Positions 11,208 to 53,670 of a DNA stretch of 64,000 nucleotides are shown one piece after another. The DNA comes from Eledone cirrhosa (taxonomy: Eukaryota): the NCBI GenBank assembly GCA_964016885.1, contig OZ024741.1, positions 124,744,001-124,808,000 of the forward strand. Reading direction: 5' to 3'. The stretch's first letter is position 1. The number at the start of each line of letters is the position of its first letter. A program made the position numbers and the translations under genes. The notes beneath the pieces were generated by a model. The model saw only the letters and a list, made by a program, of their open reading frames with translations, searched no databases and was not told the DNA's origin.

Positions 11208-11238
11208 AAAAAAAAGAAATATATATATATATACATAT

Positions 11239-11286
<48 letters not shown>

Positions 11287-14993: not shown

Positions 14994-15028
14994 GTTTAAA
15001 ATAGAGTGGAAAAGATGGGAAAGACCAC

Positions 15029-17337: not shown

Positions 17338-17373
<36 letters not shown>

Positions 17374-17404
17374 AAAAAAAAGAAATATATATATATATAC
17401 ATAT

Positions 17405-17437
<33 letters not shown>

Positions 17438-17464
17438 TACACATACACACACACATACATTAAT
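17338..17464. repeat. Inter-element spacer 3 (127 bp): copy of upstream flank
   Basis: Matches 35837-35963. Confidence 0.9.
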
Positions 17465-17726
17465 GATTTCTTTATTAACCACAAGGGTTTACATAAAGTA
17501 GACATTAAGGACAGTGCAGGACAATGCAGGACGGTACAAATGGGCATTTCTGCGTGTAAAAAAACAAAAACAAAGGATGTAACAAAAATAACAATGAAAA
17601 TAACAATGAAAAATTCCCCAATAGGGGGGAGACTTCGGAGGGACATTTGTGGAGAAAGCCCAGTAAAAAGCCACAATGACCCTGACCACCAAGGCAAGTG
17701 CCCTCTCCCAGTTTTCCAACTTTAGT

Positions 17727-21146: not shown

Positions 21147-21181
21147 GTTTAAAATAGAGTGGAAAAGATGGGAAAGACCAC

Positions 21182-23275: not shown

Positions 23276-23490
23276 GTTGTTTTTTGTTTAAAATGAAATT
23301 TTGGGTACAAAACCCCAATAACTGGTTATTTAACCCCGAAGGGCCAAATAACGGACAGAAAGACCCCTCTCACGAGGAGGAGGGTGTCTTTATCAACAAT
23401 TTGGTTCAAGTTTTAAACAATTTACAATTGTTTTAACGGTTAAAAATTACTATACCTTACAGAGCCGAGCCTCCGTCAACCATGGCATTC

Positions 23491-23526
<36 letters not shown>

Positions 23527-23557
23527 AAAAAAAAGAAATATATATATATATACATAT

Positions 23558-23590
<33 letters not shown>

Positions 23591-23617
23591 TACACATACA
23601 CACACACATACATTAAT
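23491..23617. repeat. Inter-element spacer 4 (127 bp): identical to spacer 3
   Basis: Matches 35837-35963. Confidence 0.9.
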
Positions 23618-23879
23618 GATTTCTTTATTAACCACAAGGGTTTACATAAAGTAGACATTAAGGACAGTGCAGGACAATGCAGGACGGTACAAATGGGCAT
23701 TTCTGCGTGTAAAAAAACAAAAACAAAGGATGTAACAAAAATAACAATGAAAATAACAATGAAAAATTCCCCAATAGGGGGGAGACTTCGGAGGGACATT
23801 TGTGGAGAAAGCCCAGTAAAAAGCCACAATGACCCTGACCACCAAGGCAAGTGCCCTCTCCCAGTTTTCCAACTTTAGT

Positions 23880-26800
23880 TTACAGATATATACTCAGAGT
23901 CGGCCCATTCACTCGGGCCATTCTTGCTTCTCTCACCCATCTTTCAACAAAATGCTGGGAAGAGAGCACTTCCTTCTCTACTCTGATTTTCCTTTTCAAA
24001 TGAAATTTGAAAAAGTCAATCAGAGCATCACCGAAGAGGTAAGTGCTCGTCTTCAGCCCTTTCAAACGTGTCCACCATACTATCTCTTTCGCCATGGCCA
24101 CCAGACAGATAAAAACTGCCTGCCCTTCCCGGCTAAAGGAGGAGGGCGGGGCAATCCTCACGATAGACTCAGATGATAGCTGGATCCGTCCTAAACGCGA
24201 CAGCAGGTGTTCGACATAAACCCACAAGTCAGCAATTTTCGGACACTGGACGAGTGCGTGCAGGACGGTTTCGTTGCCCTGCGCGCATCTCGGACATGCC
24301 CGGCTGACGGCACCTCCATGCCTGTAGAGTTTATCCCGAACTGGCAAGGCTCCTCGGTAGCACTGCCAGGCCAGAGATTTCTGGAAGTTGTCCATAGGCC
24401 CTGGCCCGAAAGTTCTTCCGAAGAGATTGGCTAGTTGATTTTCGTCGACGCCTAGAGTTTCCCCAAGTACGTCGTCGCTCTTCCCCTCCACTAATCCTCT
24501 ATAGAACGCCGAGGTGGAGTTTCCACCGATCACATTGCCCGATTGGTCGAGGGCTGTGAGCGCCTGAAGACATTCCAGTCTCCAGGCGCTCCCTCTCGGT
24601 CTTCGCTTGACCCAGGACTGCAGCTCCGTCAAGGAAACGAGCTGGGGAAAAACGCGTCTAGCAAACGGCGACCACACCTGATCACCGTCGAGGAAGAGGT
24701 GGAGATGTCGTAGCCTGAGCGCGTGCCTGCGCATCATCAGCCACGGCATGCCCAGCCCTCCACGTAGCGGGTGTTGACAACAGATGGACCGCCTGACCAT
24801 CGGAGCACGTCCCTTCCACAAAAAGCGAAAGAGCAAACGCTCCAGCGCAGTCAGGCGAGGCTTAGGACAAGGTACGACGGTTAGGCGGTAGCAGATGACA
24901 GACGCGATGTACGCGTTAGCCACCTCCGCTCGACCTTTCAGGGATAGCTTCCTCTCCGCCCATTTCTGGGTGAGAGAAGCCACCCTGCTCGTCACCTCGT
25001 CCCAGTTTTTGTCCGTCTGGAGGTCCGGACCGAACCAGACCCCTAGCAATTTAACCGGTCCGTCCGTCCAGCGCCCGACGACGCTGTTGGACGGCATGGA
25101 CCTGCCTCTCCAGGTGCCGAGCTGCAGGCCCACTGACTTTTCCTGGTTGATCATTGCTCCTGTCACCGCTTCGTATTCTCTTAGTGTAGTGCCGATCGCC
25201 TCGATGTGTTTGGCGTTCGACACCACTACGGTGACATCGTCCGCATATGCTGACACGGATCTTCCGCATCCTAGTTCGCGCGGGACTCCCCTCAACGTCT
25301 CCAGTTTGTGCAGTAATGGCTCGAGAGTCAATACGTACAAGAGGGACGAGAGGGGACATCCTTGGCGGACCGAGCGCATGATGTTGAACGGTTCCGACAG
25401 GTGACCGTTCACTCTCACCACAGAGCAGATGTCGCTGTGCATGGCAGCGATCCAGCCTCTGAAGACGGGCCCAAAGCCAGCCGCCCTCAGGACTGCCGCT
25501 AGGTAACGATGGTCGACCCTATCGAAAGCTTTCGACTGATCTAAATTGATCAAGGACCCACCCGTGCCAGGTTCCCTAGCTACCCTCTCTACGATGTATC
25601 GCATGAGGTGGAGGTTGTCGTGGATGGATCTGTCGGGAATGGCGCATGTCTGCGCCTCTCCCACCAGACCACCAACGACAAGCGCCAACCTCTTTGCTAG
25701 CACCTTGGCCAAAATCTTAAACTCTGTGTTTAGCAGAGTTATGGGCCGGAAATTGTCTATGTTATCCCCCTTGTTCGGATCCTTTCTCAGCAGTGCCACC
25801 GCTCCTCGGCTCACAGAACTGGGAATTCTCCCGTTCTGTTGCCAGTTGCAGTAGACGTCCGCCAAGAGGCCTCCGAACAAGTCTGGCATCTGTACGTAAA
25901 GTTCATAGGGCAGACCATCCAAACCAGGCGATTTACCCCTTGTGCAGCCAGTCATTGCCTCCCGTACTTCAGCGGCTGTTATCGGCTTTTCGCAACACTT
26001 CGCCTCAGTGGCCGAGAGCCGCGGCAGTCCGTCGAGGTAGACACTAAAGTCCATCCCTCTACCCGGCCCCCCGCTGCCCCCGAACAGCTGAGCGAAGTGT
26101 CGCTGAAAAGCTTCACACATTTGCCCGGGATCGAGTAGCATGCGCCCGTCGTGGTCCACCAAAGACCGGATCGTGGCTTTGTTGCCACGACGCGCCTCCG
26201 CCACTCGGGCCCATTGAACGGCTTTCGTCCCCTCGTGTCTGAGAGCACGCACCCTAGCTCTGACAACGCAGCCTTCGTGCTTTGCATTGAAGAATTGGTC
26301 AAGGGCCAATTTCGCCGCAAGCACGTCGGTCGCAATGCCTTTGCTAAGCGCCTCGTCTAATTTTCTAACTAGTTCTCCCTCTGCTCTATTTTTCTCTATT
26401 GCTAAAGCCTTACTAAACCTAATCGATTCTATTCTAATCGCTCTTTTCAGAGCAAACCACCACTTGTTGTTGACGATGGCCCCCGTCAACGCCCGCTTAA
26501 CTAGTTCGCTAATCCGGTCTCTGTAGGCCTTGCGCGCTGGTAAGGACGCGTTTAGCTTCCAGTAGCCGGGTCCTCGTCTATGAAGCCTATCTAAGTCAAG
26601 CACACAGGTCACGAATTTGTGGTCCGTGTAGCCGACTATCTTGAATTGTGGACAGCCTATGCTAGACCTATCTATTTCCCTACAAAATACTCTATCTAGA
26701 TATGATCTGGATGACCCTATGCGGTTTGTCCAAGTCCACATTGGCACATTCGGGAAATCCAATCGGTACCTGTCAGACAGTTCAAAACGCCTGAGCAGGT

Positions 26801-27299
26801 TGGTGAGGCTCTTGCACCCTCCACCCCTATCCGCTAATCCCACACAGTCCCAGCGTGCATCTAAGATCCCGTTCCAGTCGCCCACTAACACTAAAGAGCG
26901 GGACGTTCCAAGAAAGGTCTCCAGACGCCGGAAGAAATCAGGCCGCCCTGCTCCTGTCGGGGCATAGACGGCCACTAGCCTGAAAGCTTGCCCGTCTCCG
27001 CTGGTCACGTCCAGCACCACCAGCTTACCCTCTGGGTCCAGGAAGATGGCCCGTATGGCGAGATCCAAACCTCTCCGAAAAAGCACAGCAACTCCTCCAC
27101 CCGATCCAGGACGGCTGGGAGATGCGTACACATCGTAGCCGCCGAAGATCGGTGCGAAGGCCCGTGCTTCGGAGATTCTGGTCTCGCTGATGGCCACTAC
27201 ATCTATGTTTAGTGACCTGAGGTCGTTGAGCAGGTGACCCTGCTTCCATGACGACCCCAAGCCACGCGCATTTATGCTGCCTATTCTGAGTGAGGTCAT
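23880..27299 (-). CDS. ORF2 APE-RT-Zn finger, 1139 aa (E5)
   Basis: Same motifs; open frame. Confidence 0.97.
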   Translation of the reverse strand: MTSLRIGSINARGLGSSWKQGHLLNDLRSLNIDVVAISETRISEARAFAPIFGGYDVYASPSRPGSGGGVAVLFRRGLDLAIRAIFLDPEGKLVVLDVTSGDGQAFRLVAVYAPTGAGRPDFFRRLETFLGTSRSLVLVGDWNGILDARWDCVGLADRGGGCKSLTNLLRRFELSDRYRLDFPNVPMWTWTNRIGSSRSYLDRVFCREIDRSSIGCPQFKIVGYTDHKFVTCVLDLDRLHRRGPGYWKLNASLPARKAYRDRISELVKRALTGAIVNNKWWFALKRAIRIESIRFSKALAIEKNRAEGELVRKLDEALSKGIATDVLAAKLALDQFFNAKHEGCVVRARVRALRHEGTKAVQWARVAEARRGNKATIRSLVDHDGRMLLDPGQMCEAFQRHFAQLFGGSGGPGRGMDFSVYLDGLPRLSATEAKCCEKPITAAEVREAMTGCTRGKSPGLDGLPYELYVQMPDLFGGLLADVYCNWQQNGRIPSSVSRGAVALLRKDPNKGDNIDNFRPITLLNTEFKILAKVLAKRLALVVGGLVGEAQTCAIPDRSIHDNLHLMRYIVERVAREPGTGGSLINLDQSKAFDRVDHRYLAAVLRAAGFGPVFRGWIAAMHSDICSVVRVNGHLSEPFNIMRSVRQGCPLSSLLYVLTLEPLLHKLETLRGVPRELGCGRSVSAYADDVTVVVSNAKHIEAIGTTLREYEAVTGAMINQEKSVGLQLGTWRGRSMPSNSVVGRWTDGPVKLLGVWFGPDLQTDKNWDEVTSRVASLTQKWAERKLSLKGRAEVANAYIASVICYRLTVVPCPKPRLTALERLLFRFLWKGRAPMVRRSICCQHPLRGGLGMPWLMMRRHALRLRHLHLFLDGDQVWSPFARRVFPQLVSLTELQSWVKRRPRGSAWRLECLQALTALDQSGNVIGGNSTSAFYRGLVEGKSDDVLGETLGVDENQLANLFGRTFGPGPMDNFQKSLAWQCYRGALPVRDKLYRHGGAVSRACPRCAQGNETVLHALVQCPKIADLWVYVEHLLSRLGRIQLSSESIVRIAPPSSFSREGQAVFICLVAMAKEIVWWTRLKGLKTSTYLFGDALIDFFKFHLKRKIRVEKEVLSSQHFVERWVREARMARVNGPTLSIYL

Positions 27300-27334
27300 G
27301 TTTAAAATAGAGTGGAAAAGATGGGAAAGACCAC

Positions 27335-29431
27335 TTACCGTACTTTTGGTAGAGGAGGGATGGTTTTTACATCCCTTTTCACTTGATCGTCTGGTGAAGG
27401 GACCGTTGAATCGTCCCTTCGGCTGGTCGTCGGCTCTTCTAAGAGAATGTCTGAATATACTCTTCGATTAATGGTTCCTCCTAGGTCCCTGAAATCACCA
27501 ACTGCGTTGGGGAATTTCGTTTTAATGTTTGTGTATTGTTTCTGTGCTATTTTTAGCAGTCTTATGTTAGTTGGCGTTTTGATTGGTGCTGGTATTATGT
27601 AGTCCTGTTGTGAAATGTCTGTGTGTTCAATTATGTAAGTCATTAGTTTCTTGTTGTGTGTGTTTATTGCCGTGCATTTGTTTTTCTGGGGGTGAGGTGT
27701 GGTTCTGCTATTTTCTTGTCGTTGTTGCTGGGTGTGTGTGTTTTGTTGTTGTGTTTGCGATGTTGGTGCTTGTGGTGGTGGTGTTGAAGGTGTTGTTGGC
27801 GGTGGGGTTGTCGCCGGTGGTGATGGTGGTGCTGGTGTGGGTGGTGATGGTGTTGGTGGTGTTGCTGCTGTGGGTCTCTTTGCAGTAGACTTTACCCTTT
27901 TCTCATTTCTTTCCTCCCTTTTCAAAGGCGACGATGCGCTGCTTCTGCGTTTGTGCCTTCTTGAGACCTTTTGCCATCCCTCTCCCACCTCACACTCCAT
28001 GTCTGATTCTGTAAGGTCGGGGAGGGGTACCAGCTCCACTCTTTCACTTGTTGTTGTTGGTGATGTTTGCACTGGAGTCTCTGTTGCAGCTGCATTTGGT
28101 ATTGCTGTTGTTGTTGTTAATATTTCCACTGCTGCTGCTGTCTTTGATTTCCGTGGAGTGGGTATGGGTGCCACGGACCTATCGTTCCTGGTTGCCGCTT
28201 GTCCTGTTGCTGGTAGCCGTGGAACCGGATTCGGGAGGAGGGGGGTTTTCTCCTTTCTCATGGTCTTCTCGTTGCAGAAGGCCCTGAGGTGAGTCTTCGA
28301 TCCACAGCGAAAGCATTTCGGGCGTTTGCCCTCAACACTTATGGGCAGTTGAGTGCCGTTATCGAAGTCTATCACATCCGGGATAGCTTCGATGCACTCC
28401 TGGTTGGTTTGGATTAGCATCTCAATGGAGGAGCCGACCCAATCTTCTCTTACTTTTTTCTGTACTTGCAGTACAGTTGTTTTGTCCTCGATTCCGACGA
28501 GGACAGACGCGGCCAGCCAAGAAGGGGTCATTCCGGGGGGGACGTGGGTCAGTTTGACCCTCACAATTTTTTGCCCGCAGTAGGAGGGCACCAACACCAT
28601 TTCCTCGCTCCTTAGGGTCACTACTGATTGGGCCTTTGCCTCCTGGGGTGTGGCAAAAAGTACGTCTACGGTGGCGTATTTTTTGCCTCGGGTGATGTGC
28701 GTTTTCCTCTGCCACACAGACCCCAAGGCTTTTTGTATTTGGGCCTCTGTGGCTCTTTCCACCCTACGGGATTTTGTACTTACTGTACGGTACGTGACCG
28801 TACAGTGCTCTTGGGTTTCGAAAAAATTTTTCGCTGCCTTGCAGATTGCTCGGTGTCCGTTCTTTGTCACCATCTTCTTCGCTTCCTCTAATTCCTCATT
28901 TGTTATGAGGATTGTTTCCAGGTTTTTCGCAATACCTGCAAATGAGATTGGTTTTTCTCTGCTGTTGTTGTTGTCGTCAGAGCTGCTGGTACTTTTGTTG
29001 TTGCTGCAGGTACTACGACTACTGCCTCCGCCGCTGTTGCTGTGGTTGTTGTTGGTGTTGCTGCTGCTAATGCTGTTGTTGTTTATGCTGCTGGTGATGC
29101 TGTTGCGGCTGCTACTGTTGTTTTCATTGTCACTGTTGCTGTTGTTATTACGGCTGCTACTGCTATTATTCCTGACGTCAGACGAATGAACTGGGTTTTC
29201 GTATTTCCCGCACACCTGTTTCGTCGCTGTCGTCGTCGTCGTGGAGAAACCTTGCACGCTTTGCACGAGACTTTTCTTTTCTTTCGTCACTTGCGAAAGA
29301 GAAGGGAGGGAGAGAGACACATTTAAAGAAGGGAGGGAGAGAGACAATCTTCTCTCTGCTGTAGTGATGATTGAGGAAGAAGAAGACGGAATGAGTGGGA
29401 GTGACGTATGAAATTTCTTTTTCGTAGCCAT
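27335..29431 (-). CDS. ORF1 with CCHC zinc knuckle, 698 aa (E5)
   Basis: Open frame with CX2CX4HX4C. Confidence 0.92.
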   Translation of the reverse strand: MATKKKFHTSLPLIPSSSSSIITTAERRLSLSLPSLNVSLSLPSLSQVTKEKKSLVQSVQGFSTTTTTATKQVCGKYENPVHSSDVRNNSSSSRNNNSNSDNENNSSSRNSITSSINNNSISSSNTNNNHSNSGGGSSRSTCSNNKSTSSSDDNNNSREKPISFAGIAKNLETILITNEELEEAKKMVTKNGHRAICKAAKNFFETQEHCTVTYRTVSTKSRRVERATEAQIQKALGSVWQRKTHITRGKKYATVDVLFATPQEAKAQSVVTLRSEEMVLVPSYCGQKIVRVKLTHVPPGMTPSWLAASVLVGIEDKTTVLQVQKKVREDWVGSSIEMLIQTNQECIEAIPDVIDFDNGTQLPISVEGKRPKCFRCGSKTHLRAFCNEKTMRKEKTPLLPNPVPRLPATGQAATRNDRSVAPIPTPRKSKTAAAVEILTTTTAIPNAAATETPVQTSPTTTSERVELVPLPDLTESDMECEVGEGWQKVSRRHKRRSSASSPLKREERNEKRVKSTAKRPTAATPPTPSPPTPAPPSPPATTPPPTTPSTPPPQAPTSQTQQQNTHTQQQRQENSRTTPHPQKNKCTAINTHNKKLMTYIIEHTDISQQDYIIPAPIKTPTNIRLLKIAQKQYTNIKTKFPNAVGDFRDLGGTINRRVYSDILLEEPTTSRRDDSTVPSPDDQVKRDVKTIPPLPKVR

Positions 29432-29646
29432 GTTGTTTTTTGTTTAAAATGAAATTTTGGGTACAAAACCCCAATAACTGGTTATTTAACCCCGAAGGGC
29501 CAAATAACGGACAGAAAGACCCCTCTCACGAGGAGGAGGGTGTCTTTATCAACAATTTGGTTCAAGTTTTAAACAATTTACAATTGTTTTAACGGTTAAA
29601 AATTACTATACCTTACAGAGCCGAGCCTCCGTCAACCATGGCATTC

Positions 29647-29682
<36 letters not shown>

Positions 29683-29713
29683 AAAAAAAAGAAATATATA
29701 TATATATACATAT

Positions 29714-29746
<33 letters not shown>

Positions 29747-29806
29747 TACACATACACACACACATACATTAATAACAATAATAATAATAATAATAACAAC
29801 AATAAT
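29647..29806. repeat. Inter-element spacer 5 (160 bp): copy of upstream flank
   Basis: Matches 35837-35996. Confidence 0.9.
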
Positions 29807-30069
29807 GATTTCTTTATTAACCACAAGGGTTTACATAAAGTAGACATTAAGGACAGTGCAGGACAATGCAGGACGGTACAAATGGGCATTTCTGCGTGTA
29901 AAAAAAACAAAAATAGAGGATGTAACAAAAATAACAATGAAAATAACAATGAAAAATTCCCCAATAGGGGGGAGACTTCGGAGGGACATTTGTGGAGAAA
30001 GCCCAGTAAAAAGCCACAATGACCCTGACCACCAAGGCAAGTGCCCTCTCCCAGTTTTCCACCTTTAGT

Positions 30070-33000
30070 TTACAGATATATACTCAGAGTCGGCCCATTC
30101 ACTCGGGCCATTCTTGCTTCTCTCACCCATCTTTCAACAAAATGCTGGGAAGAGAGCACTTCCTTCTCTACTCTGATTTTCCTTTTCAAATGAAATTTGA
30201 AAAAGTCAATCAGAGCATCACCGAAGAGGTAAGTGCTCGTCTTCAGCCCTTTCAAACGTGTCCACCATACTATCTCTTTCGCCATGGCCACCAGACAGAT
30301 AAAAACTGCCTGCCCTTCCCGGCTAAAGGAGGAGGGCGGGGCAATCCTCACGATAGACTCAGATGATAGCTGGATCCGTCCTAAACGCGACAGCAGGTGT
30401 TCGACATAAACCCACAAGTCAGCAATTTTCGGACACTGGACGAGTGCGTGCAGGACGGTTTCGTCGCCCTGCGCGCATCTCGGACATGCCCGGCTGACGG
30501 CACCTCCATGCCTGTAGAGTTTATCCCGAACTGGCAAGGCTCCTCGGTAGCACTGCCAGGCCAGAGATTTCTGGAAGTTGTCCATAGGCCCTGGCCCGAA
30601 GGTTCTTCCGAAGAGATTGGCTAGTTGATTTTCGTCGACGCCTAGAGTTTCCCCAAGTACGTCGTCGCTCTTCCCCTCCACTAATCCTCTATAGAACGCC
30701 GAGGTGGAGTTTCCACCGATCACATTGCCCGATTGGTCGAGGGCTGTGAGCGCCTGAAGACATTCCAGTCTCCAGGCGCTCCCTCTCGGTCTTCGCTTGA
30801 CCCAGGACTGCAGCTCCGTCAAGGAAACGAGCTGGGGAAAAACGCGTCTAGCAAACGGCGACCACACCTGATCACCGTCGAGGAAGAGGTGGAGATGTCG
30901 TAGCCTGAGCGCGTGCCTGCGCATCATCAGCCACGGCATGCCCAGCCCTCCACGTAGCGGGTGTTGACAACAGATGGACCGCCTGACCATCGGAGCACGT
31001 CCCTTCCACAAAAAGCGAAAGAGCAAACGCTCCAGCGCAGTCAGGCGAGGCTTAGGACAAGGTACGACGGTTAGGCGGTAGCAGATGACAGACGCGATGT
31101 ACGCGTTAGCCACCTCCGCTCGACCTTTCAGGGATAGCTTCCTCTCCGCCCATTTCTGGGTGAGAGAAGCCACCCTGCTCGTCACCTCGTCCCAGTTTTT
31201 GTCCGTCTGGAGGTCCGGACCGAACCAGACCCCTAGCAATTTAACCGGTCCGTCCGTCCAGCGCCCGACGACGCTGTTGGACGGCATGGACCTGCCTCTC
31301 CAGGTGCCGAGCTGCAGGCCCACTGACTTTTCCTGGTTGATCATTGCTCCTGTCACCGCTTCGTATTCTCTTAGTGTAGTGCCGATCGCCTCGATGTGTT
31401 TGGCGTTCGACACCACTACGGTGACATCGTCCGCATATGCTGACACGGATCTTCCGCATCCTAGTTCGCGCGGGACTCCCCTCAACGTCTCCAGTTTGTG
31501 CAGTAATGGCTCGAGAGTCAATACGTACAAGAGGGACGAGAGGGGACATCCTTGGCGGACCGAGCGCATGATGTTGAACGGTTCCGACAGGTGACCGTTC
31601 ACTCTCACCACAGAGCAGATGTCGCTGTGCATGGCAGCGATCCAGCCTCTGAAGACGGGCCCAAAGCCAGCCGCCCTCAGGACTGCCGCTAGGTAACGAT
31701 GGTCGACCCTATCGAAAGCTTTCGACTGATCTAAATTGATCAAGGACCCACCCGTGCCAGGTTCCCTAGCTACCCTCTCTACGATGTATCGCATGAGGTG
31801 GAGGTTGTCGTGGATGGATCTGTCGGGAATGGCGCATGTCTGCGCCTCTCCCACCAGACCACCAACGACAAGCGCCAACCTCTTTGCTAGCACCTTGGCC
31901 AAAATCTTAAACTCTGTGTTTAGCAGAGTTATGGGCCGGAAATTGTCTATGTTATCCCCCTTGTTCGGATCCTTTCTCAGCAGTGCCACCGCTCCTCGGC
32001 TCACAGAACTGGGAATTCTCCCGTTCTGTTGCCAGTTGCAGTAGACGTCCGCCAAGAGGCCTCCGAACAAGTCTGGCATCTGTACGTAAAGTTCATAGGG
32101 CAGACCATCCAAACCAGGCGATTTACCCCTTGTGCAGCCAGTCATTGCCTCCCGTACTTCAGCGGCTGTTATCGGCTTTTCGCAACACCTCGCCTCAGTG
32201 GCCGAGAGCCGCGGCAGCCCGTCGAGGTAGACACTAAAGTCCATCCCTCTACCCGGCCCCCCGCTGCCCCCGAACAGCTGAGCGAAGTGTCGCTGAAAAG
32301 CTTCACACATTTGCCCGGGATCGAGTAGCATGCGCCCGTCGTGGTCCACCAAAGACCGGATCGTGGCTTTGTTGCCACGACGCGCCTCCGCCACTCGGGC
32401 CCATTGAACGGCTTTCGTCCCCTCGTGTCTGAGAGCACGCACCCTAGCTCTGACAACGCAGCCTTCGTGCTTTGCATTGAAGAATTGGTCAAGGGCCAAT
32501 TTCGCCGCAAGCACGTCGGTCGCAATGCCTTTGCTAAGCGCCTCGTCTAATTTTCTAACTAGTTCTCCCTCTGCTCTATTTTTCTCTATTGCTAAAGCCT
32601 TACTAAACCTAATCGATTCTATTCTAATCGCTCTTTTCAGAGCAAACCACCACTTGTTGTTGACGATGGCCCCCGTCAACGCCCGCTTAACTAGTTCGCT
32701 AATCCGGTCTCTGTAGGCTTTGCGCGCTGGTAAGGACGCGTTTAGCTTCCAGTAGTCGGGTCCTCGTCTATGAAGCCTATCTAAGTCAAGCACACAGATC
32801 ACGAATTTGTGGTCCGTGTAGCTGACTATCTTGAATTGTGGACAGCCTATGCTAGACCTATCTATTTCCCTACAAAATACTCTATCTAGATATGATCTGG
32901 ATGACCCTATGCGGTTTGTCCAAGTCCACATTGGCACATTCGGGAAATCCAATCGGTACCTGTCAGACAGTTCAAAACGCCTGAGCAGGTTGGTGAGGCT

Positions 33001-33489
33001 CTTGCACCCTCCACCCCTATCCGCTAATCCCACACAGTCCCAGCGTGCATCTAAGATCCCGTTCCAGTCGCCCACTAACACTAAAGAGCGCGACGTTCCA
33101 AGAAAGGTCTCCAGACGCCGGAAGAAATCAGGCCGCCCTGCTCCTGTCGGGGCATAGACGGCCACTAGCCTGAAAGCTTGCCCGTCTCCGCTGGTCACGT
33201 CCAGCACCACCAGCTTACCCTCTGGGTCCAGGAAGATGGCCCGTATGGCGAGATCCAAACCTCTCCGAAAAAGCACAGCAACTCCTCCACCCGATCCAGG
33301 ACGGCTGGGAGATGCGTACACATCGTAGCCGCCGAAGATCGGTGCGAAGGCCCGTGCTTCGGAGATTCTGGTCTCGCTGATGGCCACTACATCTATGTTT
33401 AGTGACCTGAGGTCGTTGAGCAGGTGACCCTGCTTCCATGACGACCCCAAGCCACGCGCATTTATGCTGCCTATTCTGAGTGAGGTCAT
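30070..33489 (-). CDS. ORF2 APE-RT-Zn finger, 1139 aa (E6)
   Basis: Same motifs; open frame. Confidence 0.97.
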   Translation of the reverse strand: MTSLRIGSINARGLGSSWKQGHLLNDLRSLNIDVVAISETRISEARAFAPIFGGYDVYASPSRPGSGGGVAVLFRRGLDLAIRAIFLDPEGKLVVLDVTSGDGQAFRLVAVYAPTGAGRPDFFRRLETFLGTSRSLVLVGDWNGILDARWDCVGLADRGGGCKSLTNLLRRFELSDRYRLDFPNVPMWTWTNRIGSSRSYLDRVFCREIDRSSIGCPQFKIVSYTDHKFVICVLDLDRLHRRGPDYWKLNASLPARKAYRDRISELVKRALTGAIVNNKWWFALKRAIRIESIRFSKALAIEKNRAEGELVRKLDEALSKGIATDVLAAKLALDQFFNAKHEGCVVRARVRALRHEGTKAVQWARVAEARRGNKATIRSLVDHDGRMLLDPGQMCEAFQRHFAQLFGGSGGPGRGMDFSVYLDGLPRLSATEARCCEKPITAAEVREAMTGCTRGKSPGLDGLPYELYVQMPDLFGGLLADVYCNWQQNGRIPSSVSRGAVALLRKDPNKGDNIDNFRPITLLNTEFKILAKVLAKRLALVVGGLVGEAQTCAIPDRSIHDNLHLMRYIVERVAREPGTGGSLINLDQSKAFDRVDHRYLAAVLRAAGFGPVFRGWIAAMHSDICSVVRVNGHLSEPFNIMRSVRQGCPLSSLLYVLTLEPLLHKLETLRGVPRELGCGRSVSAYADDVTVVVSNAKHIEAIGTTLREYEAVTGAMINQEKSVGLQLGTWRGRSMPSNSVVGRWTDGPVKLLGVWFGPDLQTDKNWDEVTSRVASLTQKWAERKLSLKGRAEVANAYIASVICYRLTVVPCPKPRLTALERLLFRFLWKGRAPMVRRSICCQHPLRGGLGMPWLMMRRHALRLRHLHLFLDGDQVWSPFARRVFPQLVSLTELQSWVKRRPRGSAWRLECLQALTALDQSGNVIGGNSTSAFYRGLVEGKSDDVLGETLGVDENQLANLFGRTFGPGPMDNFQKSLAWQCYRGALPVRDKLYRHGGAVSRACPRCAQGDETVLHALVQCPKIADLWVYVEHLLSRLGRIQLSSESIVRIAPPSSFSREGQAVFICLVAMAKEIVWWTRLKGLKTSTYLFGDALIDFFKFHLKRKIRVEKEVLSSQHFVERWVREARMARVNGPTLSIYL

Positions 33490-33524
33490 GTTTAAAATAG
33501 AGTGGAAAAGATGGGAAAGACCAC

Positions 33525-35621
33525 TTACCGTATTTTTGGTAGAGGAGGGATGGTTTTTACATCCCTTTTCACTTGATCGTCTGGTGAAGGGACCGTTGAA
33601 TCGTCCCTTCGGCTGGTCGTCGGCTCTTCTAAGAGAATGTCTGAATATACTCTTCGATTAATGGTTCCTCCTAGGTCCCTGAAATCACCAACTGCGTTGG
33701 GGAATTTCGTTTTAATGTTTGTGTATTGTTTCTGTGCTATTTTTAGCAGTCTTATGTTAGTTGGCGTTTTGATTGGTGCTGGTATTATGTAGTCCTGTTG
33801 TGAAATGTCTGTGTGTTCAATTATGTAAGTCATTAGTTTCTTGTTGTGTGTGTTTATTGCCGTGCATTTGTTTTTCTGGGGGTGGGGTGTGGTTCTGCTA
33901 TTTTCTTGTCGTTGTTGCTGGGTGTGTGTGTTTTGTTGTTGTGTTTGCGATGTTGGTGCTTGTGGTGGTGGTGTTGAAGGTGTTGTTGGCGGTGGGGTTG
34001 TCGCCGGTGGTGATGGTGGTGCTGGTGTGGGTGGTGATGGTGTTGGTGGTGTTGCTGCTGTGGGTCTCTTTGCAGTAGACTTTACCCTTTTCTCATTTCT
34101 TTCCTCCCTTTTCAAAGGCGACGATGCGCTGCTTCTGCGTTTGTGCCTTCTTGAGACCTTTTGCCATCCCTCTCCCACCTCACACTCCATGTCTGATTCT
34201 GTAAGGTCGGGGAGGGGTACCAGCTCCACTCTTTCACTTGTTGTTGTTGGTGATGTTTGCACTGGAGTCTCTGTTGCAGCTGCATTTGGTATTGCTGTTG
34301 TTGTTGTTAATATTTCCACTGCTGCTGCTGTCTTTGATTTCCGTGGAGTGGGTATGGGTGCCACGGACCTATCGTTCCTGGTTGCCGCTTGTCCTGTTGC
34401 TGGTAGCCGTGGAACCGGATTCGGGAGGAGGGGGGTTTTCTCCTTTCTCATGGTCTTCTCGTTGCAGAAGGCCCTGAGGTGAGTCTTCGATCCACAGCGA
34501 AAGCATTTCGGGCGTTTGCCCTCAACACTTATGGGCAGTTGAGTGCCGTTATCGAAGTCTATCACATCCGGGATAGCTTCGATGCACTCCTGGTTGGTTT
34601 GGATTAGCATCTCAATGGAGGAGCCGACCCAATCTTCTCTTACTTTTTTCTGTACTTGCAGTACAGTTGTTTTGTCCTCGATTCCGACGAGGACAGACGC
34701 GGCCAGCCAAGAAGGGGTCATTCCGGGGGGGACGTGGGTCAGTTTGACCCTCACAATTTTTTGCCCGCAGTAGGAGGGCACCAACACCATTTCCTCGCTC
34801 CTTAGGGTCACTACTGATTGGGCCTTTGCCTCCTGGGGTGTGGCAAAAAGTACGTCTACGGTGGCGTATTTTTTGCCTCGGGTGATGTGCGTTTTCCTCT
34901 GCCACACAGACCCCAAGGCTTTTTGTATTTGGGCCTCTGTGGCTCTTTCCACCCTACGGGATTTTGTACTTACTGTACGGTACGTGACCGTACAGTGCTC
35001 TTGGGTTTCGAAAAAATTTTTCGCTGCCTTGCAGATTGCTCGGTGTCCGTTCTTTGTCACCATCTTCTTCGCTTCCTCTAATTCCTCATTTGTTATGAGG
35101 ATTGTTTCCAGGTTTTTCGCAATACCTGCAAATGAGATTGGTTTTTCTCTGCTGTTGTTGTTGTCGTCAGAGCTGCTGGTACTTTTGTTGTTGCTGCAGG
35201 TACTACGACTACTGCCTCCGCCGCTGTTGCTGTGGTTGTTGTTGGTGTTGCTGCTGCTAATGCTGTTGTTGTTTATGCTGCTGGTGATGCTGTTGCGGCT
35301 GCTACTGTTGTTTTCATTGTCACTGTTGCTGTTGTTATTACGGCTGCTACTGCTATTATTCCTGACGTCAGACGAATGAACTGGGTTTTCGTATTTCCCG
35401 CACACCTGTTTCGTCGCTGTCGTCGTCGTCGTGGAGAAACCTTGCACGCTTTGCACGAGACTTTTCTTTTCTTTCGTCGCTTGCGAAAGAGAAGGTAGGG
35501 AGAGAGACACATTTAAAGAAGGGAGGGAGAGAGACAATCTTCTCTCTGCTGTAGTGATGATTGAGGAAGAAGAAGACGGAATGAGTGGGAGTGACGTATG
35601 AAATTTCTTTTTCGTAGCCAT
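33525..35621 (-). CDS. ORF1 with CCHC zinc knuckle, 698 aa (E6)
   Basis: Open frame with CX2CX4HX4C. Confidence 0.92.
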   Translation of the reverse strand: MATKKKFHTSLPLIPSSSSSIITTAERRLSLSLPSLNVSLSLPSLSQATKEKKSLVQSVQGFSTTTTTATKQVCGKYENPVHSSDVRNNSSSSRNNNSNSDNENNSSSRNSITSSINNNSISSSNTNNNHSNSGGGSSRSTCSNNKSTSSSDDNNNSREKPISFAGIAKNLETILITNEELEEAKKMVTKNGHRAICKAAKNFFETQEHCTVTYRTVSTKSRRVERATEAQIQKALGSVWQRKTHITRGKKYATVDVLFATPQEAKAQSVVTLRSEEMVLVPSYCGQKIVRVKLTHVPPGMTPSWLAASVLVGIEDKTTVLQVQKKVREDWVGSSIEMLIQTNQECIEAIPDVIDFDNGTQLPISVEGKRPKCFRCGSKTHLRAFCNEKTMRKEKTPLLPNPVPRLPATGQAATRNDRSVAPIPTPRKSKTAAAVEILTTTTAIPNAAATETPVQTSPTTTSERVELVPLPDLTESDMECEVGEGWQKVSRRHKRRSSASSPLKREERNEKRVKSTAKRPTAATPPTPSPPTPAPPSPPATTPPPTTPSTPPPQAPTSQTQQQNTHTQQQRQENSRTTPHPQKNKCTAINTHNKKLMTYIIEHTDISQQDYIIPAPIKTPTNIRLLKIAQKQYTNIKTKFPNAVGDFRDLGGTINRRVYSDILLEEPTTSRRDDSTVPSPDDQVKRDVKTIPPLPKIR

Positions 35622-35836
35622 GTTGTTTTTTGTTTAAAATGAAATTTTGGGTACAAAACCCCAATAACTGGTTATTTAACCCCGAAGGGCCAAATAACGG
35701 ACAGAAAGACCCCTCTCACGAGGAGGAGGGTGTCTTTATCAACAATTTGGTTCAAGTTTTAAACAATTTACAATTGTTTTAACGGTTAAAAATTACTATA
35801 CCTTACAGAGCCGAGCCTCCGTCAACCATGGCATTC

Positions 35837-35872
<36 letters not shown>

Positions 35873-35903
35873 AAAAAAAAGAAATATATATATATATACA
35901 TAT

Positions 35904-35936
<33 letters not shown>

Positions 35937-36090
35937 TACACATACACACACACATACATTAATAACAATAATAATAATAATAATAACAACAATAATGATA
36001 ACGAAAACAACAATAATAATATACATATACATATATATATACACACACACGCACACACATAAGCGTATCTACACACTCACACACACGATA
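35837..36090. repeat. Compound microsatellite flank, putative target site of the array
   Basis: (AAT)n, A-run, (TA)n, (CA)n, (AAT/AAC)n. Its first 21-160 bp recur in every spacer. Confidence 0.85.
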
Positions 36091-36094
36091 GCAA

Positions 36095-37200
36095 CTAGCA
36101 GCGCTGCGATCGAATGTGGCTTTTTAGCCCAGCCAATGGTCTAAAATCTCTTGCACAGAGTCGGCAACCAAAAGATTCACTGGGAATAGTCGGCTGTGGT
36201 TGGAGTTCGTGTACTTTTGCATGTCGCTTGAGCCCTCCTGCTGATTTACATTCTCTACCACATGTTTGGCAAGCATGATGAGTAGCAGCCTGGTAGTCAA
36301 CCACTGGTCTTACTTTATGAGTGCGAAGATGACTTTCGAGTCCAGCTTTGCTTAGGCAGAGTCTCGCACATACGCTGCATGTCAGCACCATAGGAGGACC
36401 CTCGCCGTCTGGAAGTGCAACAGCAGTGCCCTTCCTGACATCCCGCTTGACTTTCTCGTATGCGATTCGAGATGCCTCAAAGGCAACTTTTCCCTCATAT
36501 ACAGTCTTTCTCCATTTATTACGATCAGCAGCAATATTCTCCCATGTATCAGCAGAGATGTTAGCGTCTTTCAGAGAGGCTTTCAAGGAATCCTTATACC
36601 TCTTTTTTGGTTTATGTGGCGGTCGTTTTCCTTTAACCCACTCTCCATAAAAGAGTTGTTTTGGTATTCTAGAATCCTTCATCCTGGCAAGGTGACCACT
36701 CCAACGGAGTCGTTGCTTAAGCACAAGAGCTTCTATACTGTCACACATAGAGCTTTCCAAAATCTCGATATCACTGATGTGGTCCCTCCAGTGAACGCCA
36801 TGGATCCGTCTGAGACACATCTGATGGAAACGCTCCAATTGCTTAAGGTGGTGTCGATATGTGACCCAGGTCTCGCAGGCATAAAGAAGACAAGAGAGCA
36901 CACATGCCCTGTACACCTTTACCTTTGTCCTCCTGCATATGTCTCGCCGACCCCAGAGTCGCCTTTCTAGCTTTCCGAAAGCATCACTTGCTTTCCTAAT
37001 CCTAAGTGAGATTTCACTGTCAAGGTTGCTGTATCGATTGACAGTGCTTCCCACTAGACAAACTGATAACCACTCCAAGTCGTTTGCCATACACATAGAT
37101 GTTTGGTTCAGTGTACTGCTTACCAGGGGCAGGTTGGTACATGACGACGGTTTTCTTGAGACTGACAGTCAGACCTAGGGCAGTGCAAGCGTCAGAAAAT
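36095..37200 (-). mobile_element. 5'-truncated RTE-clade LINE fragment (late RT/thumb region plus C-terminal C2H2 fingers)
   Basis: GLTVSLKKT, RIRKASDAFGKL, LLYACETW, LRWSGHLARM and RIPKQLFYGE are typical of RTE/BovB-type ORFs. Frameshift near 37060. Three C-terminal C2H2-like fingers. Confidence 0.85.
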
Positions 37201-37201
37201 G

Positions 37202-37285
37202 CATACATACATACATACATACATACATACATACATACATACATACATACATACATACATACATACATACATACATACATACATA
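37202..37285. repeat. (CATA)n microsatellite
   Basis: Perfect tetranucleotide run. Confidence 0.95.
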
Positions 37286-39270
37286 CTAACTAACAAAATG
37301 ATTCTGGAAAAAACAACAAAGAATCGCAGAAACATGACTGTGGTGTGGCTGGACTATCAAAAAGCATTTGATAGTGTACCTCATGGGTGCATTATTAAGG
37401 CTTTACAGTTAGCTAAAGTCCCACAAGCATTGGTAGCTGCTGTTGAACGCCTGACCAAGAACTGGTACACCAATTTGATGCTTAGAGGTGAGAAGGAGCA
37501 AGTTAAGACTGATAAGATACATTACCAGAAAGGCATCTTTCAGGCTGATAGCTTGTCAGTGCTACTCTTCGTTCTCTCACTGAATCCATTATCTTACCTT
37601 ATCAAGAAACAAGGTGGACAAAGAAGTGGGCCCAGAAGTATCTCCCATCTTTTCTTTGTTGATGACCTGAAGTTGTATGGGCCAAATATCAATGACATTA
37701 AGAAACAATTGGACCTCATTACACAATTTCGAACCGACATCAAAATGAAATTTGGTGAGTCCAAGTGTGCATATTTGGCAGTAAAACGTGGAAGAGCTGT
37801 GCCCTCCTCTAAAAATCTAGAGATGAACGGCCTGACAATACAACCTCTACAGTCAGGTGACAACTACAGATATCTTGGACAGGATGAGAATGTCAGATAT
37901 GATGGACCCATAAATAAGGAGAGAACCAGAACTGAATACCTCAGAAGAGTGAAGAAAATATGGTCATCAGAACTGTCAGCGTACAACAAATACATTGCCC
38001 ACAATACTTATGCTGTGCCAATTCTAACGCCAACATTTGGCCTGCTGAACTGGTCATTGCAAGAACTAAGTGACATGGATGTTAGAACTCGAAAACTTCT
38101 CAGTGTTACTGGGAACCTTAACATCAATGGTGATGTGGATAGGCTATACTTCTCACGCAAGGAAGGTGGCCGGGGTCTAAAATCAATATTAACAACACAT
38201 GAGACCCGGATAGTAACACTGAAGCAACAACTTCAACAGAGGAAAAAGGTTGGCAACCATCTTGCCCAGGTTTATAAGCATGAAAAACAAATATCATTAG
38301 AATAGCGACTGATCTGGAGGAGAGATATGGAATAAAGCCTGATATAAATCTCTCACCCAGAGAAATCGGAAGATCCTATTCAATGTTCAAACAAGATAAC
38401 AAAATTGACCAATTTACAGAAAAAGTTGTGCATGGATAATTGAGGCGTAAAACACAGACCATAGAGGGGATAAACCACTCAAAAAGCCTGGCATAGAGTT
38501 CCGACAAGTTTATGACATCACACCTTGAGGGATATCTCTATGCAATACAGGAACAAGAACTCCCTACCAAATATATGCTGCACAAAAGAGGAGGGCCAGC
38601 AGCTGACAATAAATGTAGGCTATGCAAAACAAAGATCGAGGATGTAAGCCACATTGTTGCCAGCTGCGAAAGAATGTCATCTCGCTACTACCTCCCCATG
38701 AGACACGATGGGATACCTAGAACCATCTGGAACGCACTTCGGAAAACAAAATTAATAACAAACGAGGAAGAATATATTGAGACAGATGGCACTAAGGAAT
38801 ACTGGTGGAACCTGAAAATAAAAACTGCCACCAAATTAAAGCACAACCGGCCTGATATTGTTGTTTGGGACCACACATTGAAAATGTGTTCTGTTGTGGA
38901 GATCAGCTGCCCACTTGATGTAAACGTTGTCAGAAAAATACAGGAGAAGGAGGACATCTACGGACCATTGATGAGGAGTTTACAAATTCAGTATCCAAGA
39001 TACACATTTAGCTTCATACCCATCATTATTGGAGCTACGGGTTATATACCAACCCGCTTGGACCAAAGTATGACTGAACTTGGATTTGCGGACAAAAAGC
39101 GCAGCTCCCTAATTCATAGTCTACAAATGGCTGCGATAGCTGGCACCTTCAAAATTTGCAAAACATTCTTGCGATTCAAGGTATGACAATTTCTTTTCTT
39201 TTACAACCTTGCCACCAGGAAGGTGGCCGGTCAAAAAAATATACTCGAAATTAACAGAAAGAGATAACAT
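37286..39270 (+). mobile_element. 5'-truncated, decayed R4/Dong-like non-LTR element A (RT + restriction-like endonuclease)
   Basis: WLDYQKAFDSVPH, GIFQADSLS, FVDDLKL, GGRGL, then CRLC-X8-H-X4-C, RHD, NRPDIVV and EISCP (RLE). Frameshift/stops between 38305 and 38512. Confidence 0.88.
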
Positions 39271-39289: not shown

Positions 39290-42200
39290 CAAAGACGACA
39301 ACTATGCCTGTAAGAAACTTGGCACCACCTGTACCATCTAAGTCTACCTCGAATGCTGGGGCAAACACTATCGATAATAATAATAATCGAAGAAATAATA
39401 ATAATAATCGAAGAAATGTGACACCACGTGTACCATCCGAGTCTATCTCGACTGTTGTGGAAAATACTATCGATAATGATCATCAAAAGTATAAACAATT
39501 GAAAATTTCCCTCAACGAAATCTTCCAGAGAGAAATTAACTCATGTATAATATCTCTCTTGCTGAACGTGTTAAAATGACAATGGTGAATAAAAAACCAA
39601 ATAATGAAATACTACGTGTTATTGACGAAATAGGGGATGAATATTTACGACGGATAAAAACCCTAACATTTTGGCAAATCAACGCCTGTTTATATGCCTT
39701 AGCAATGACCATGAAGCATTATCTTGGTGATAGCAGAGACATTAACAAGAACAAAACACCACCAAAAATACCATCATATAAAACTAAAATAGAAAAACAG
39801 AGTGCTCACCTACGAAAAAACATAGGACATGTGACAATGCTCCTTACATGCAAACAAACACACAAAAACCTCACTCCTCACCAACAAAGAGTGGAAAATA
39901 AAATAGAGACGATGTTTGGTAACTGTAGAACCAGAACTCTCCCATATAAGTTGATCACCCTCAAACAAGAATTGAGAGGTGTTAGTGAAAAACGCCGATA
40001 CCTGAAGAAGGTAGATGAGATAAAAGTGCTTAATAAAAGATTCAGACGAAACCAAACATCAGTCTATAGAGATATGAAGGGCAAAATAATAAGTCACTGA
40101 GGCCCCATCCCAGAAAGACAGTTTCCTTTTGGAGAAAAATATGGGTTGAAAAGAAGAATTTCAACCAAGATGCAGTGTGGCTAAGAGAAATCCGAAAGAA
40201 CTATTGCTCCTACACTACAACAAAAACATACGAAATAAGTGAGGATACCGTTGAGACTGTGATAGGAAAACTCCAAGATAAGAAAACACCAGGAAGAGAC
40301 ATGATTGTCGGCTACTGGTACAAAAAACTAATATTCTATCGGGGGTATCTTACTGATCTTTACCAATAAGTTCTTAAGCGAGATACACTTATACCAGAAT
40401 GGTTGACATTAGCACAAACGTTACTGGTCCCCAAGAACAAAGACACCCACTTGGCAAAAAATTACCGACCCATTGCATGCCAGAACCTGATGTATAAGAT
40501 GTATACCTGAACCTATACTGCCTGAACCTATTCCTCCAAGATCACTGTGAAAATAATAACATCATCATAGATGAACAAGCAGCTGGAAAGAAAGGGGTTT
40601 GGGGATGAGCTGAACAACTCCTAATCAACAAAACTGCGATGTCGGAGGTGCGACAACTTAGGAGGGATATGACTACAGTCTGGCTGGACTACAGGAAAGC
40701 TTTCAATTCTGTTCCCCACTCTTGGATTATAGAGGCCCTCCAACTTGCTAAAGTCCCAGACATTATTGTCAGAGCCATAGAGAGGCTGTCTTCTTCTTGG
40801 GCTAATATCCTAAGGTTAAAGACAGAGAAGGAGGACTCTATTTTCACTGATAAAATAAAATATTTCAGGGAGACACTCTCTCTGTGATGTTGTTCATCTT
40901 GTCATTAAACCCCTTGTCATTTCTGCTCAAGAAATGTGAGGGATACATCATTGGCTCACGGGAGGACAGAAATACGAACCTAACCCATAATTTCTTTGTG
41001 GAAGATCTGAAACTCTATGCCAAGAACATGGATGGGATTAAGAAAAATCTTGACCTGGTTACAAGGTTCTAAAAGGATATAGCAATGGAGTTTGGCCAAG
41101 ATAAATGCTCATACATGAGTGTAAAGCGGAGAAAAACAACAACCCAATCTAGCAACATTGTCATCAATGGTCTAACTGTTTCACCAATATCTGATGAGGA
41201 CTGCTACAGATAACTGGGGATAGATGAGAACATATCCTATAATGGTAGCTGTAATAAAGAACGCGTAACCAGCGATTAAGAAAGATCTGGTCATCGGAAC
41301 TCTCTGCGCAAAACAAAACAGGGCTCACAATGTATTTGCTGTGCCTGTCCTAACACCAACGTTTGGAATACTCAATTGGACAATAGACGAAATACGAGCA
41401 GTTGATGTTGGAACTCGAAAAATACTGAACAACACCGGAAACTTCCACATCAACAGTGACATAGACCGCTTTTACTTGAAACGTAAGCAGGGAGGCTGAG
41501 GTCTAACATCAGTCCAGACAACATTTGAATGTCGCATCATATCTCTCCGATGACATCTACGAACCTCGAAGCGTAGGAGTCCGCTTCTCGAGCAAGTCTA
41601 TCTGCATGAAACAGATAAGATCATGAGAGTTGGGACGTAACCCCTTAAGAGATATTCCCTGTGTGATAATCAAAAACTCACACCCAGGGATGTCGCTCAG
41701 CAGTATCGCAGTGAATCCATGGATGAAAAACTGCATGCCTATCAGCAAAAAATCATGCATGGATATGTTGCCAGGGAGCTCCAGAGTGAGAGTAATATAG
41801 ATAAGGAAAGTAGTCTATATTGGACCAACAAGAGCTATATTGGCTCCCACTTTGAAGGATGCGCTTTTGCAATCCAGGAACAAGAGATTAGCACGAAATA
41901 CCTGATTCACAAAAGAGATAGGGATGCAGGCAAAGCACCTAGATGTGATAACAAGTGCAGACTCTGCAAAACTAACATCGAGGATATCACCCAAGTCATC
42001 AGCAGCTGTCCAAAGATGTCATCGCGGTACTATCTACCTATGAGGCATGATGTATTGGCCAAAACACTGTACAATGCAGTTCATAAAAAAGATAGCCCCG
42101 ATAATAAACACATTAAAAGCTACAACAATGTGGAAGACATCCATGTACATAATATGAAAGAGTACTGGTGGAATGTTTCAGTAAAAACCCCAATAAAATG

Positions 42201-42780
42201 CAGGCATAACAGACCAGATATTATGATATGGGGCAGGGAGAAGAAAACATGCACAGTAATGGAAATTAGTTGCCCAGCAGATGCTAATATAATATCAAAG
42301 ATTAGTGAAAAGGAGAATATTTATGCAGAACTGATGAGAAATCTGCAGATACTCCACCCTGATTACACCTTCAGATTTATGCCTATGATGGTTGGTGCAC
42401 TGGGATATGTTAGTAACTGCCTCAATACAAATCTTGAGAAGCTGGACTTCACTGGAACAGAAAGAACACAATTAGTTAGGAAATTACAAGTACAATACAT
42501 TAATGGAACGAACAGTAAAAATATGTTAAACATTCCAAAAGTTTGCATCTAATAACTGCATATACACATGTACACATGCACGCATACAACTCAAATCATC
42601 CACATCCACACATACAATAACATCCATATCTACACATGCATGCATACATACATAATCTACTTAGTTGATGTTGTGTAAATTCCAATGAGAGAGTCTTGTG
42701 TATATGTTAGAAACCGACTCTCTTTCTATTGGTAAAACTTTGTGAAATTATAAAACCAGAAGAACATACATAGATACATA
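39290..42780 (+). mobile_element. Near-full-length decayed R4/Dong-like RT-RLE element B
   Basis: Fragments KTPGRD, NYRPIAC, WLDYRKAFNSVPH, FVEDLKL, CRLC..., RHD, NRPDIMIW, EISCP, with many stops and frameshifts. Clearly homologous to, but diverged from, element A. Confidence 0.85.

Positions 42781-53240: not shown

Positions 53241-53670
<430 letters not shown>

Follow-up and report, generated by a model that had tools for sequence, protein, structure and literature searches.

A six-unit LINE array and its spacers

The 64,000-nucleotide window analyzed here (positions 124,744,001 to 124,808,000 of contig OZ024741.1, assembly GCA_964016885.1, Eledone cirrhosa) carries a tandem array of a long interspersed nuclear element (LINE) whose units are separated by copies of the array's upstream flank. 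Self-comparison of the window revealed a repeat of ~6.15 kb occupying positions 1-35999, made up of six near-identical copies (E1 to E6) arranged head to tail on the minus strand. At a length of 6030 bp, the unit holds two open reading frames (ORFs), ORF1 of 698 amino acids (aa) and ORF2 of 1139 aa; the units differ pairwise by 10-60 substitutions, and all six have full-length 5′ ends. Read along the minus strand, the order is the upstream flank F (from 35837), E6, 160 bp, E5, 127 bp, E4, 127 bp, E3, 140 bp, E2, 21 bp and E1. The features are as follows, the window coordinates of the E1 synonymous tract and the E4 switch interval having been converted by hand.

1-5171, minus strand: E1, LINE copy that runs off the window; its ORF1 is intact and its ORF2 stays open up to the edge
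179-815, minus strand: private-synonymous tract of E1 (element positions 4360-4996); 9/10 changes synonymous over ~640 bp of ORF2
5172-5192, minus strand: 21-bp spacer, pure (ATT)7
5193-11171, minus strand: E2, the most decayed copy; ORF1 damaged, ORF2 open
11172-11311, minus strand: 140-bp spacer, flank −136 to −1 with 4 bp added in the CA tract and one substitution
11312-17337, minus strand: E3; ORF1 and ORF2 intact
17338-17464, minus strand: first 127-bp spacer, exactly flank −127 to −1
17465-23490, minus strand: E4, E3/E5 chimera; matches E3 over element positions 1-3500 and E5 over 3798-6030
19994-21267, minus strand: E3-to-E5 switch interval in E4 (element positions 2227-3500), including site 3014
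23491-23617, minus strand: second 127-bp spacer, same sequence as the first
23618-29646, minus strand: E5; ORFs intact, equal to E3/E4 over element positions 1-725 and of E6 type over 726-1684
29647-29806, minus strand: 160-bp spacer, exactly flank −160 to −1
29807-35836, minus strand: E6, full-length copy nearest the flank, 6030 bp
29813-29818, minus strand: AATAAA, six bases from the element 3′ end, with no poly(A) after it
30070-33489, minus strand: ORF2 of E6, 1139 aa; APE endonuclease, reverse transcriptase (YADD) and C-terminal zinc-binding domain
33525-35621, minus strand: ORF1 of E6, 698 aa; single CCHC knuckle at aa 373
34154-35111, minus strand: E5/E6 allele stretch in E6; five alleles exclusive to E5 and E6 (element positions 726-1683)
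35837-36094, minus strand: upstream flank F, a 258-bp run of simple repeats with a terminal (ATT)9
36095-37096, minus strand: C-terminal ORF fragment of a second retroelement, on the same strand as the array

An earlier note on this DNA had described five nested spacers, all beginning with the sequence at 35837. Its coordinates are correct: each of the five lies between one element's 5′ end and the following element's 3′ end. Four of the five (21, 127, 127 and 160 bp) reproduce the flank exactly from 35837 onward, whereas the 140-bp spacer, the sole diverged one, is the equivalent of a 136-bp copy with an altered CA tract and lies upstream of E2, the most decayed unit. Nesting stands for the long spacers but is trivial for the 21-bp spacer, which was set aside as uninformative because it is pure (ATT)7. 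F is the source of all spacers and likely also the target of insertion.

In element sense, the distinct junctions fall at −21, −127, −136 and −160, and all four start with ATTA. Within the terminal 160 bp of the flank, 13 of the 150 positions at which a junction could start offer this motif, giving P ~6e-5 for four of four, for a motif picked post hoc once the junctions had been seen. At each of the four sites of this locus the precise element end is joined to ATTA, and the earlier description of essentially tailless junctions holds: extra tail is absent at both testable junctions (−127 and −160), and could not be tested for at −21 and −136 because the flank there is an ATT repeat. At the 160-bp junction, 3 bp (ATC) are common to the element end and the preceding flank. 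The other boundary is constant, with a terminal (ATT)9 before the element 5′ end in all five long copies (the flank and the 160-, 127-, 127- and 140-bp spacers); pairing by the ATT repeat alone would be expected to vary the number of ATT units. The five junctions show four lengths instead of the single fixed target-site duplication (TSD) of a double-insertion tandem, a pattern fitted by the (ATT)7 junction alone. That F might belong to the element's 5′ untranslated region (UTR) was considered and rejected for this locus, as the 21-bp junction lacks the flank and E1 is intact.

Number of events and history of the units

The sequence of E4 bears on how many duplications the spacers record. Its identity tracts with E3 (element positions 1-3500, P 0.0016) and with E5 (3798-6030, P 0.0008) make it a mosaic with only two private changes, and the allele at site 3014, common to E3, E4 and E5 alone, falls inside the switch interval. 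Because an unequal crossover between E5 and E3 yields exactly such a mosaic between identical 127-bp spacers, the two 127-bp spacers probably represent one event plus an unequal crossover, and the second was likely duplicated along with E4. The chimeric E4, the duplicated 127-bp spacer and alleles shared by neighbours are together what expansion by unequal exchange leaves behind. A count of five independent events is rejected, since the 21-bp spacer is (ATT)7, for which no special mechanism need be invoked, and the 127-bp pair brackets the chimera; three informative duplications remain, of 136, 127 and 160 bp.

The units have decayed unequally. E2 alone carries coding frameshifts, and its ORF1 shows private deletions of 1 bp (two), 15 bp and 30 bp and an early stop; its private coding changes (24 non-synonymous and 8 synonymous, 8/32) are neutral-like. 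Lineage-specific substitutions number 25 in E2 against 7 in E3 (P 0.002), 5 in E5 (P 0.0003) and 12 in E6 (P 0.047; 19 vs 6 for non-synonymous changes only, P 0.015), and the molecular clock is broken between E2 and E3. Because of this excess decay, and because the only diverged spacer precedes it, E2 is likely the founder, decaying in place, and E3, E5 and E6 were likely added upstream with the same 5′ junction regenerated each time.

Synonymous changes point to more than one source. Of the private ORF2 changes in E1, 11/15 are synonymous where a fraction of 0.24-0.29 would be expected (P ≤ 0.0005); the tract at 179-815 is likely from another, more distant subfamily. The ORF1 split of E2, E3 and E4 from E1, E5 and E6 is likewise rich in synonymous sites (5/7, P 0.013-0.025, in a test that omits the three-allele site 821 and one 3-bp indel). 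These patterns suggest that the copies derive from different selected source lineages. E3 differs from E2 at 48 positions and from E1 at 43 and is a copy of no visible downstream unit. Taken with the decay of E2, the synonymous excess indicates that separate insertions at ATTA sites likely extended the array upstream. Two proposals of the earlier note, separate insertions at different ATT sites and a fixed 5′ boundary set by homology, are supported by these two observations and by the poor fit of a deletion model considered below.

Alleles of the array were also compared with sequencing runs. Four of the 24 runs listed were compared by read mapping; X1, X5 and X6 cover the element, and X22 gave 3 reads. 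The read comparison omits the junction repeats at 29777-29814 and 35831-36067, and the allele comparison covers 25 of the 33 element sites listed (the other eight are clustered in the 5′ UTR; 246 further sites lie beyond these). Among the matches listed, the alleles at 939 and 1505 are of the E1/E5/E6 type in X5 and of the E2/E3/E4 type in X1 and X6, and the four checked of the five alleles exclusive to E5 and E6 are rare or absent in X1, X5 and X6. In X1 the summed depth over the 5′ third of the element is 0.20 of that over ORF2, a ratio of depth and not of copy number.

Origin of the nested spacers

From the observed anatomy, the exact-suffix spacers, the ATTA junctions, the constant (ATT)9, the chimerism of E4 and the unequal decay, we infer a series of steps. 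We consider it slightly better than an even prospect that the spacers are nested duplicates of the upstream flank, produced by ATTA-primed insertions that were completed by homologous recombination with the 5′ part of a resident copy. E2 would have come first, at the end of F, and E1 later, by ordinary double insertion into the (ATT)n run behind E2. For each further unit, ORF2p would nick the bottom strand at an ATTA lying k bases (127-160 bp) upstream of the resident copy, and the RNA of another family member would be reverse-transcribed, starting at or within a few bases of the RNA 3′ end. The end of the complementary DNA (cDNA), complementary to the element, would then pair with the resident copy on the same or the sister chromatid, and synthesis would run back past the resident 5′ end, cross the old junction and enter the flank, rejoining upstream. 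The product would be F(full), new copy, F(−k to −1), old copy, and a truncated cDNA would thereby reach full length. An unequal crossover between E5 and E3 would finally have made E4 and the second 127-bp spacer. The same product could arise by another route, in which an ordinary insertion comes first and soon undergoes unequal exchange with the homologue's resident copy. The one-step version by cDNA recombination is plausible, if somewhat short of an even chance, and the two-step version of insertion followed by exchange is unlikely.

In this proposal the 5′ boundary is fixed because the old junction is recopied, and the 3′ boundary varies because the nick site varies, which would account for the constant (ATT)9 and for the six of six full-length 5′ ends in a family with so low an X1 depth over its 5′ third. 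The duplication would then stem from recombination rather than from two staggered nicks, and 'TSD', the term of the earlier note, is probably a misnomer. A neighbor-like 5′ part joined to a foreign 3′ part fits E4 and also E5, which equals its downstream neighbor over 1-725 and switches lineage thereafter (one CpG site); E3 and E6 are without informative support.

Each step has a precedent in L1 or R2, and the arrangement of the steps appears new. Duplication-type L1 chimeras were reportedly described by Gilbert in 2005. Elongating L1 cDNA recombines with a resident L1 at the insertion site (PMC5223499), and two events of L1 cDNA recombining with an endogenous full-length L1, dependent on homology length, are described in PMC13526784. 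As at the present locus, a target-primed 3′ junction is combined there with a 5′ end resolved by homology to a genomic copy; however, those chimeras were single events in cultured human cells, in the cases cited mostly with deletions or translocations and with poly(A) tails, whereas here the process would have been iterated in the germline, duplicating the flank and leaving an array of intact copies. A LINE without 5′-truncated copies has been described (PMC2861651), so being full-length can in itself be a trait of the family.

Several observations weigh against this proposal. The neighbor-derived 5′ end of E5 hangs on one informative site (358), which lies in a CpG, and mismatches between E6 and E5 at 341 and 358 limit any copied part there to less than 358 bp; the identical E5/E6 tract at 359-1951 is not significant (P 0.09), and the neighbor-like 5′ part of E4 is equally explained by crossover. 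Two-unit allele classes pair adjacent units in 5/6 cases (P 0.017; 17/18 by columns, P 0.003), and such neighbor-shared alleles mean that DNA-level exchange has blurred the history and can mimic chimeric insertion. E6, supposedly the youngest unit, has more changes of its own than E5 (8 vs 1, P 0.04; 11 vs 4, P 0.12), and its synonymous excess is weak (5/9, P 0.05-0.09). The alleles at 1985 and 5746 are common to all units examined and, among the matches listed, make up ~9% and 5% of the X1 depth and do not occur in the X5 and X6 contigs; rare shared alleles of this kind are compatible with a local source and equally with a minor subfamily. In X5 (~6 vs 9-10) and X6 (~44 vs 82-116) the depth gradient is far shallower than in X1. 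Recombination at the insertion site gave deletions in the L1 study cited above (PMC5223499), and the mechanism is read from end products at one locus, with no intermediate seen.

A purely DNA-level history, in which a single 160-bp junction was multiplied by unequal crossover, spacers were shortened by slippage or microhomology deletions and gene conversion made the mosaic, appears rather unlikely. The crossover-type chimera E4 and the alleles linking neighbors agree with it, deletions between direct repeats of 9, 4 and 6 bp would take 160 bp to 136, 127 and 21 bp, and E5 fits a crossover product with the 5′ part of its downstream neighbor and the 3′ part of E6 (uniform divergence is not rejected, P 0.09). 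Descent of the shorter spacers from one 160-bp junction, which the earlier note had put forward as the case against itself, nevertheless fits poorly. An exact suffix is left by 14/182 end-preserving deletions with microhomology of at least 4 bp and by 13/77 with at least 6 bp, giving P ~0.006-0.03 for two such deletions with all deletions weighted equally; no change is seen in (ATT)9, T9 and (AT)n, which are more prone to slippage, and this history leaves the E2/E3 clock violation and the synonymous excess of E1 to be explained. False expansion of a smaller array during assembly is barely conceivable: E4 with its repeated 127-bp spacer does resemble a false duplication and no array-spanning read was seen in the compared runs, but the units differ at 10-60 substitutions with a structured synonymous bias, E4 has its two private changes and there are four distinct junctions.

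The RNA-based alternatives place the flank on the transcript. The earlier note had suggested read-through RNA carrying flank and array copy, primed at ATT, whose flank cDNA anneals to the target in an R2-like manner. Identical structure and a fixed boundary would follow; R2 templates give seamless 5′ joins through cDNA annealing to the upstream target (PMC11371274), a same-strand retroelement upstream could provide the transcription, and two alleles rare elsewhere are common to the units, which keeps a local RNA source possible. We nonetheless regard this as quite unlikely. New units should then be whole copies of array members, but E3 copies no visible downstream unit and violates the clock relative to E2; the array contains several selected lineages, and F would not be expected on sources belonging to other lineages. 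A full-length cDNA plus flank would be required each time, and read-through is unnecessary because the resident copy's own 5′ sequence provides the homology. Very unlikely, in our view, is 5′ transduction, with flank on variably truncated read-through RNAs, joining at ATT microhomology and an array extending downstream from E6. A variable 5′ end is a LINE hallmark (PMC2861651, PMC5932611), one fixed and one variable boundary would be a natural consequence, and E6 has more changes of its own than E3 or E5. Yet E6 should then be the oldest unit, whereas E2 leads in non-synonymous changes and holds all frameshifts; truncation within the element occurs at none of the five junctions, and residual ATT is absent at the two testable ones. 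Genuine long TSDs, with a bottom-strand cut at ATTA and a top-strand cut where the flank originally met the element, are highly improbable. L1 TSDs reach kilobases in repair-deficient cells (PMC5223499) and an R9 TSD is called exceptionally long in a paper's title, but the second nick would have to fall on the same base three times, 127, 136 and 160 bp away, and every cDNA would have to be full-length.

The R1 array of Drosophila and the crocodilian SINEU-3 tandems are likewise head to tail, with target-derived spacers and expansion by unequal exchange (PMC5932611, PMC4494074), and SINEU-3 tandems sandwich a TSD (PMC4494074); the E2/E1 junction and E4 match this double-insertion tandem pattern. 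R1 spacers, however, are identical 33-nt duplications and most non-LTR (long terminal repeat) tandem junctions have a 5′-truncated partner (PMC5932611), whereas the present array has long, variable, nested spacers and full-length partners throughout. R2 also has a seamless 5′ junction fixed by homology (PMC11371274, PMC12203849), but it uses a restriction-like endonuclease, one fixed nick and flank homology borne by RNA, while here the nick varies and the homology is likely the element itself. L1 TSDs are usually <20 bp (PMC10760644, PMC2912911); those in repair-deficient cells, like the duplications here, span 100 bp to kilobases around an APE-type insertion, but their far end has been ascribed to a distal nick unrelated to the first (PMC5223499), and at this locus it always falls on one base. 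PMC6007223 and PMC4640811 served as background only. No LINE array with nested, variable upstream-flank spacers was reported in the literature searched, whose coverage mostly excludes subscription papers and Repbase.

The feature is real, and on balance we lean, by a little, toward reading it as akin to L1 cDNA-resident recombination iterated at a microsatellite-rich site, plus one double insertion and one unequal crossover. How LINE 5′ ends are joined is still an open question, and the locus would preserve, in the germline, a natural record of three successive homology-resolved insertions, each leaving a dated spacer. If so, long apparent TSDs beside a resident copy would be recombination products, tandem LINE arrays could expand without 5′ truncation, and family members would swap 5′ and 3′ halves while inserting. 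An asymmetry is also predicted, a resident copy downstream of the nick giving duplication and one upstream giving deletion. It is doubtful, though worth stating, that the family targets (ATT)n and routinely repairs from a downstream resident copy, turning truncated cDNAs into full-length, ORF-intact chimeras and regenerating its target at many loci; this would mean self-feeding growth of active-LINE arrays with built-in lineage recombination at many loci, relatives' genomes included.

LINE family, sequencing runs and flanking region

ORF2 matched Pfam PF03372, PF00078 and PF13966 above cut-off, and its closest solved structure is human L1 ORF2p (E 3e-52). Sequence inspection located its catalytic motifs, whose residues we presume to have their usual roles. 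An N-terminal APE, a reverse transcriptase and a C-terminal zinc-binding domain place it in the L1 group of non-LTR retrotransposons, as does the two-ORF layout with a nucleic-acid-binding ORF1. A Pfam scan of ORF1 gave no match, and its feature matches were to CCHC/RRM (ZCCHC3-like) clusters (0.90-0.93). The poly(A) tail and short TSD at TT/AAAA of mammalian L1 are lacking; AATAAA is followed by GAAATC and then flank, with no poly(A) at any of the five junctions. We take the LINE to be Tx1-like, from its general features and not from a reverse transcriptase tree; structure, homologue and cluster look-ups returned no named Tx1 reference. For O. vulgaris, PMC13282606 tabulates L1-Tx1 families with recent activity. 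Microsatellites and transposons serve as targets of Tx1-clade families, and Kibi, Koshi and crocodilian Tx1 combine an L1-group APE and reverse transcriptase ORF2 with microsatellite targets (PMC4494074); all junctions of the present array likewise fall at one microsatellite motif. The targets named in that paper, (TC)n, (TTC)n, (TTCC)n and (TTTC)n, do not include (ATT)n, the preference for which comes from one locus; that paper calls a family target-specific when the same target occurs in >20% of flanks genome-wide (PMC4494074).

An Octopus sinensis 'tectonic-3-like' gene model (P0051, residues 41-101) shares 64% identity over 61 residues with the ORF2 endonuclease domain, probably as a misannotated or exonised fragment; ORF1 had no real match to it. 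A metagenome scan with a 12-sequence alignment as query kept 80 of 91 loci, every one distant, two of them matching E6 plus flank over a short 65-bp stretch of DNA. Nine runs, under six organism codes, contain at least half of the sampled words from 29807-37100, and X5 contigs match ORF2 at >99%. The LINE family is young, and either common to close species or recently transferred.

Within the element, positions 1-210 are invariant across the array. In the 5′ UTR, X1 shows polymorphism within 35596-35669, with 25-48% of letters differing at four sites at which all six units agree, and a short G+C-rich hairpin lies at 35710-35730. An X5 contig ends at 35827, close to the element 5′ end; nothing was drawn from it.

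F adjoins the ORF fragment at 36095-37096, which has C2H2-like fingers (Pfam C2H2 matches only sub-threshold) and high depth in X1, and which we take to be RTE-like. Since F occupies the expected 3′-tail position of this same-strand retroelement, the tail of another element may have been the insertion site of the LINE array. The remainder of the window holds no further copy of the LINE or of the RTE-like piece. On the plus strand, 37199-39186 and 39543-42552 are two degenerate reverse transcriptase elements, ~70% alike in part, with RVT_1 and zf-RVT matches and a presumed HERO/R4-like identity and restriction-like endonuclease motif; the first starts at a (CATA)21 run that closes the RTE-like piece. 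The region from 43000 to 64000 is A+T-rich and dense in AT, AC, AG and AAG microsatellites, and its sole listed ORFs (53311-53856 and 60609-61232) are mostly repeat read-outs.

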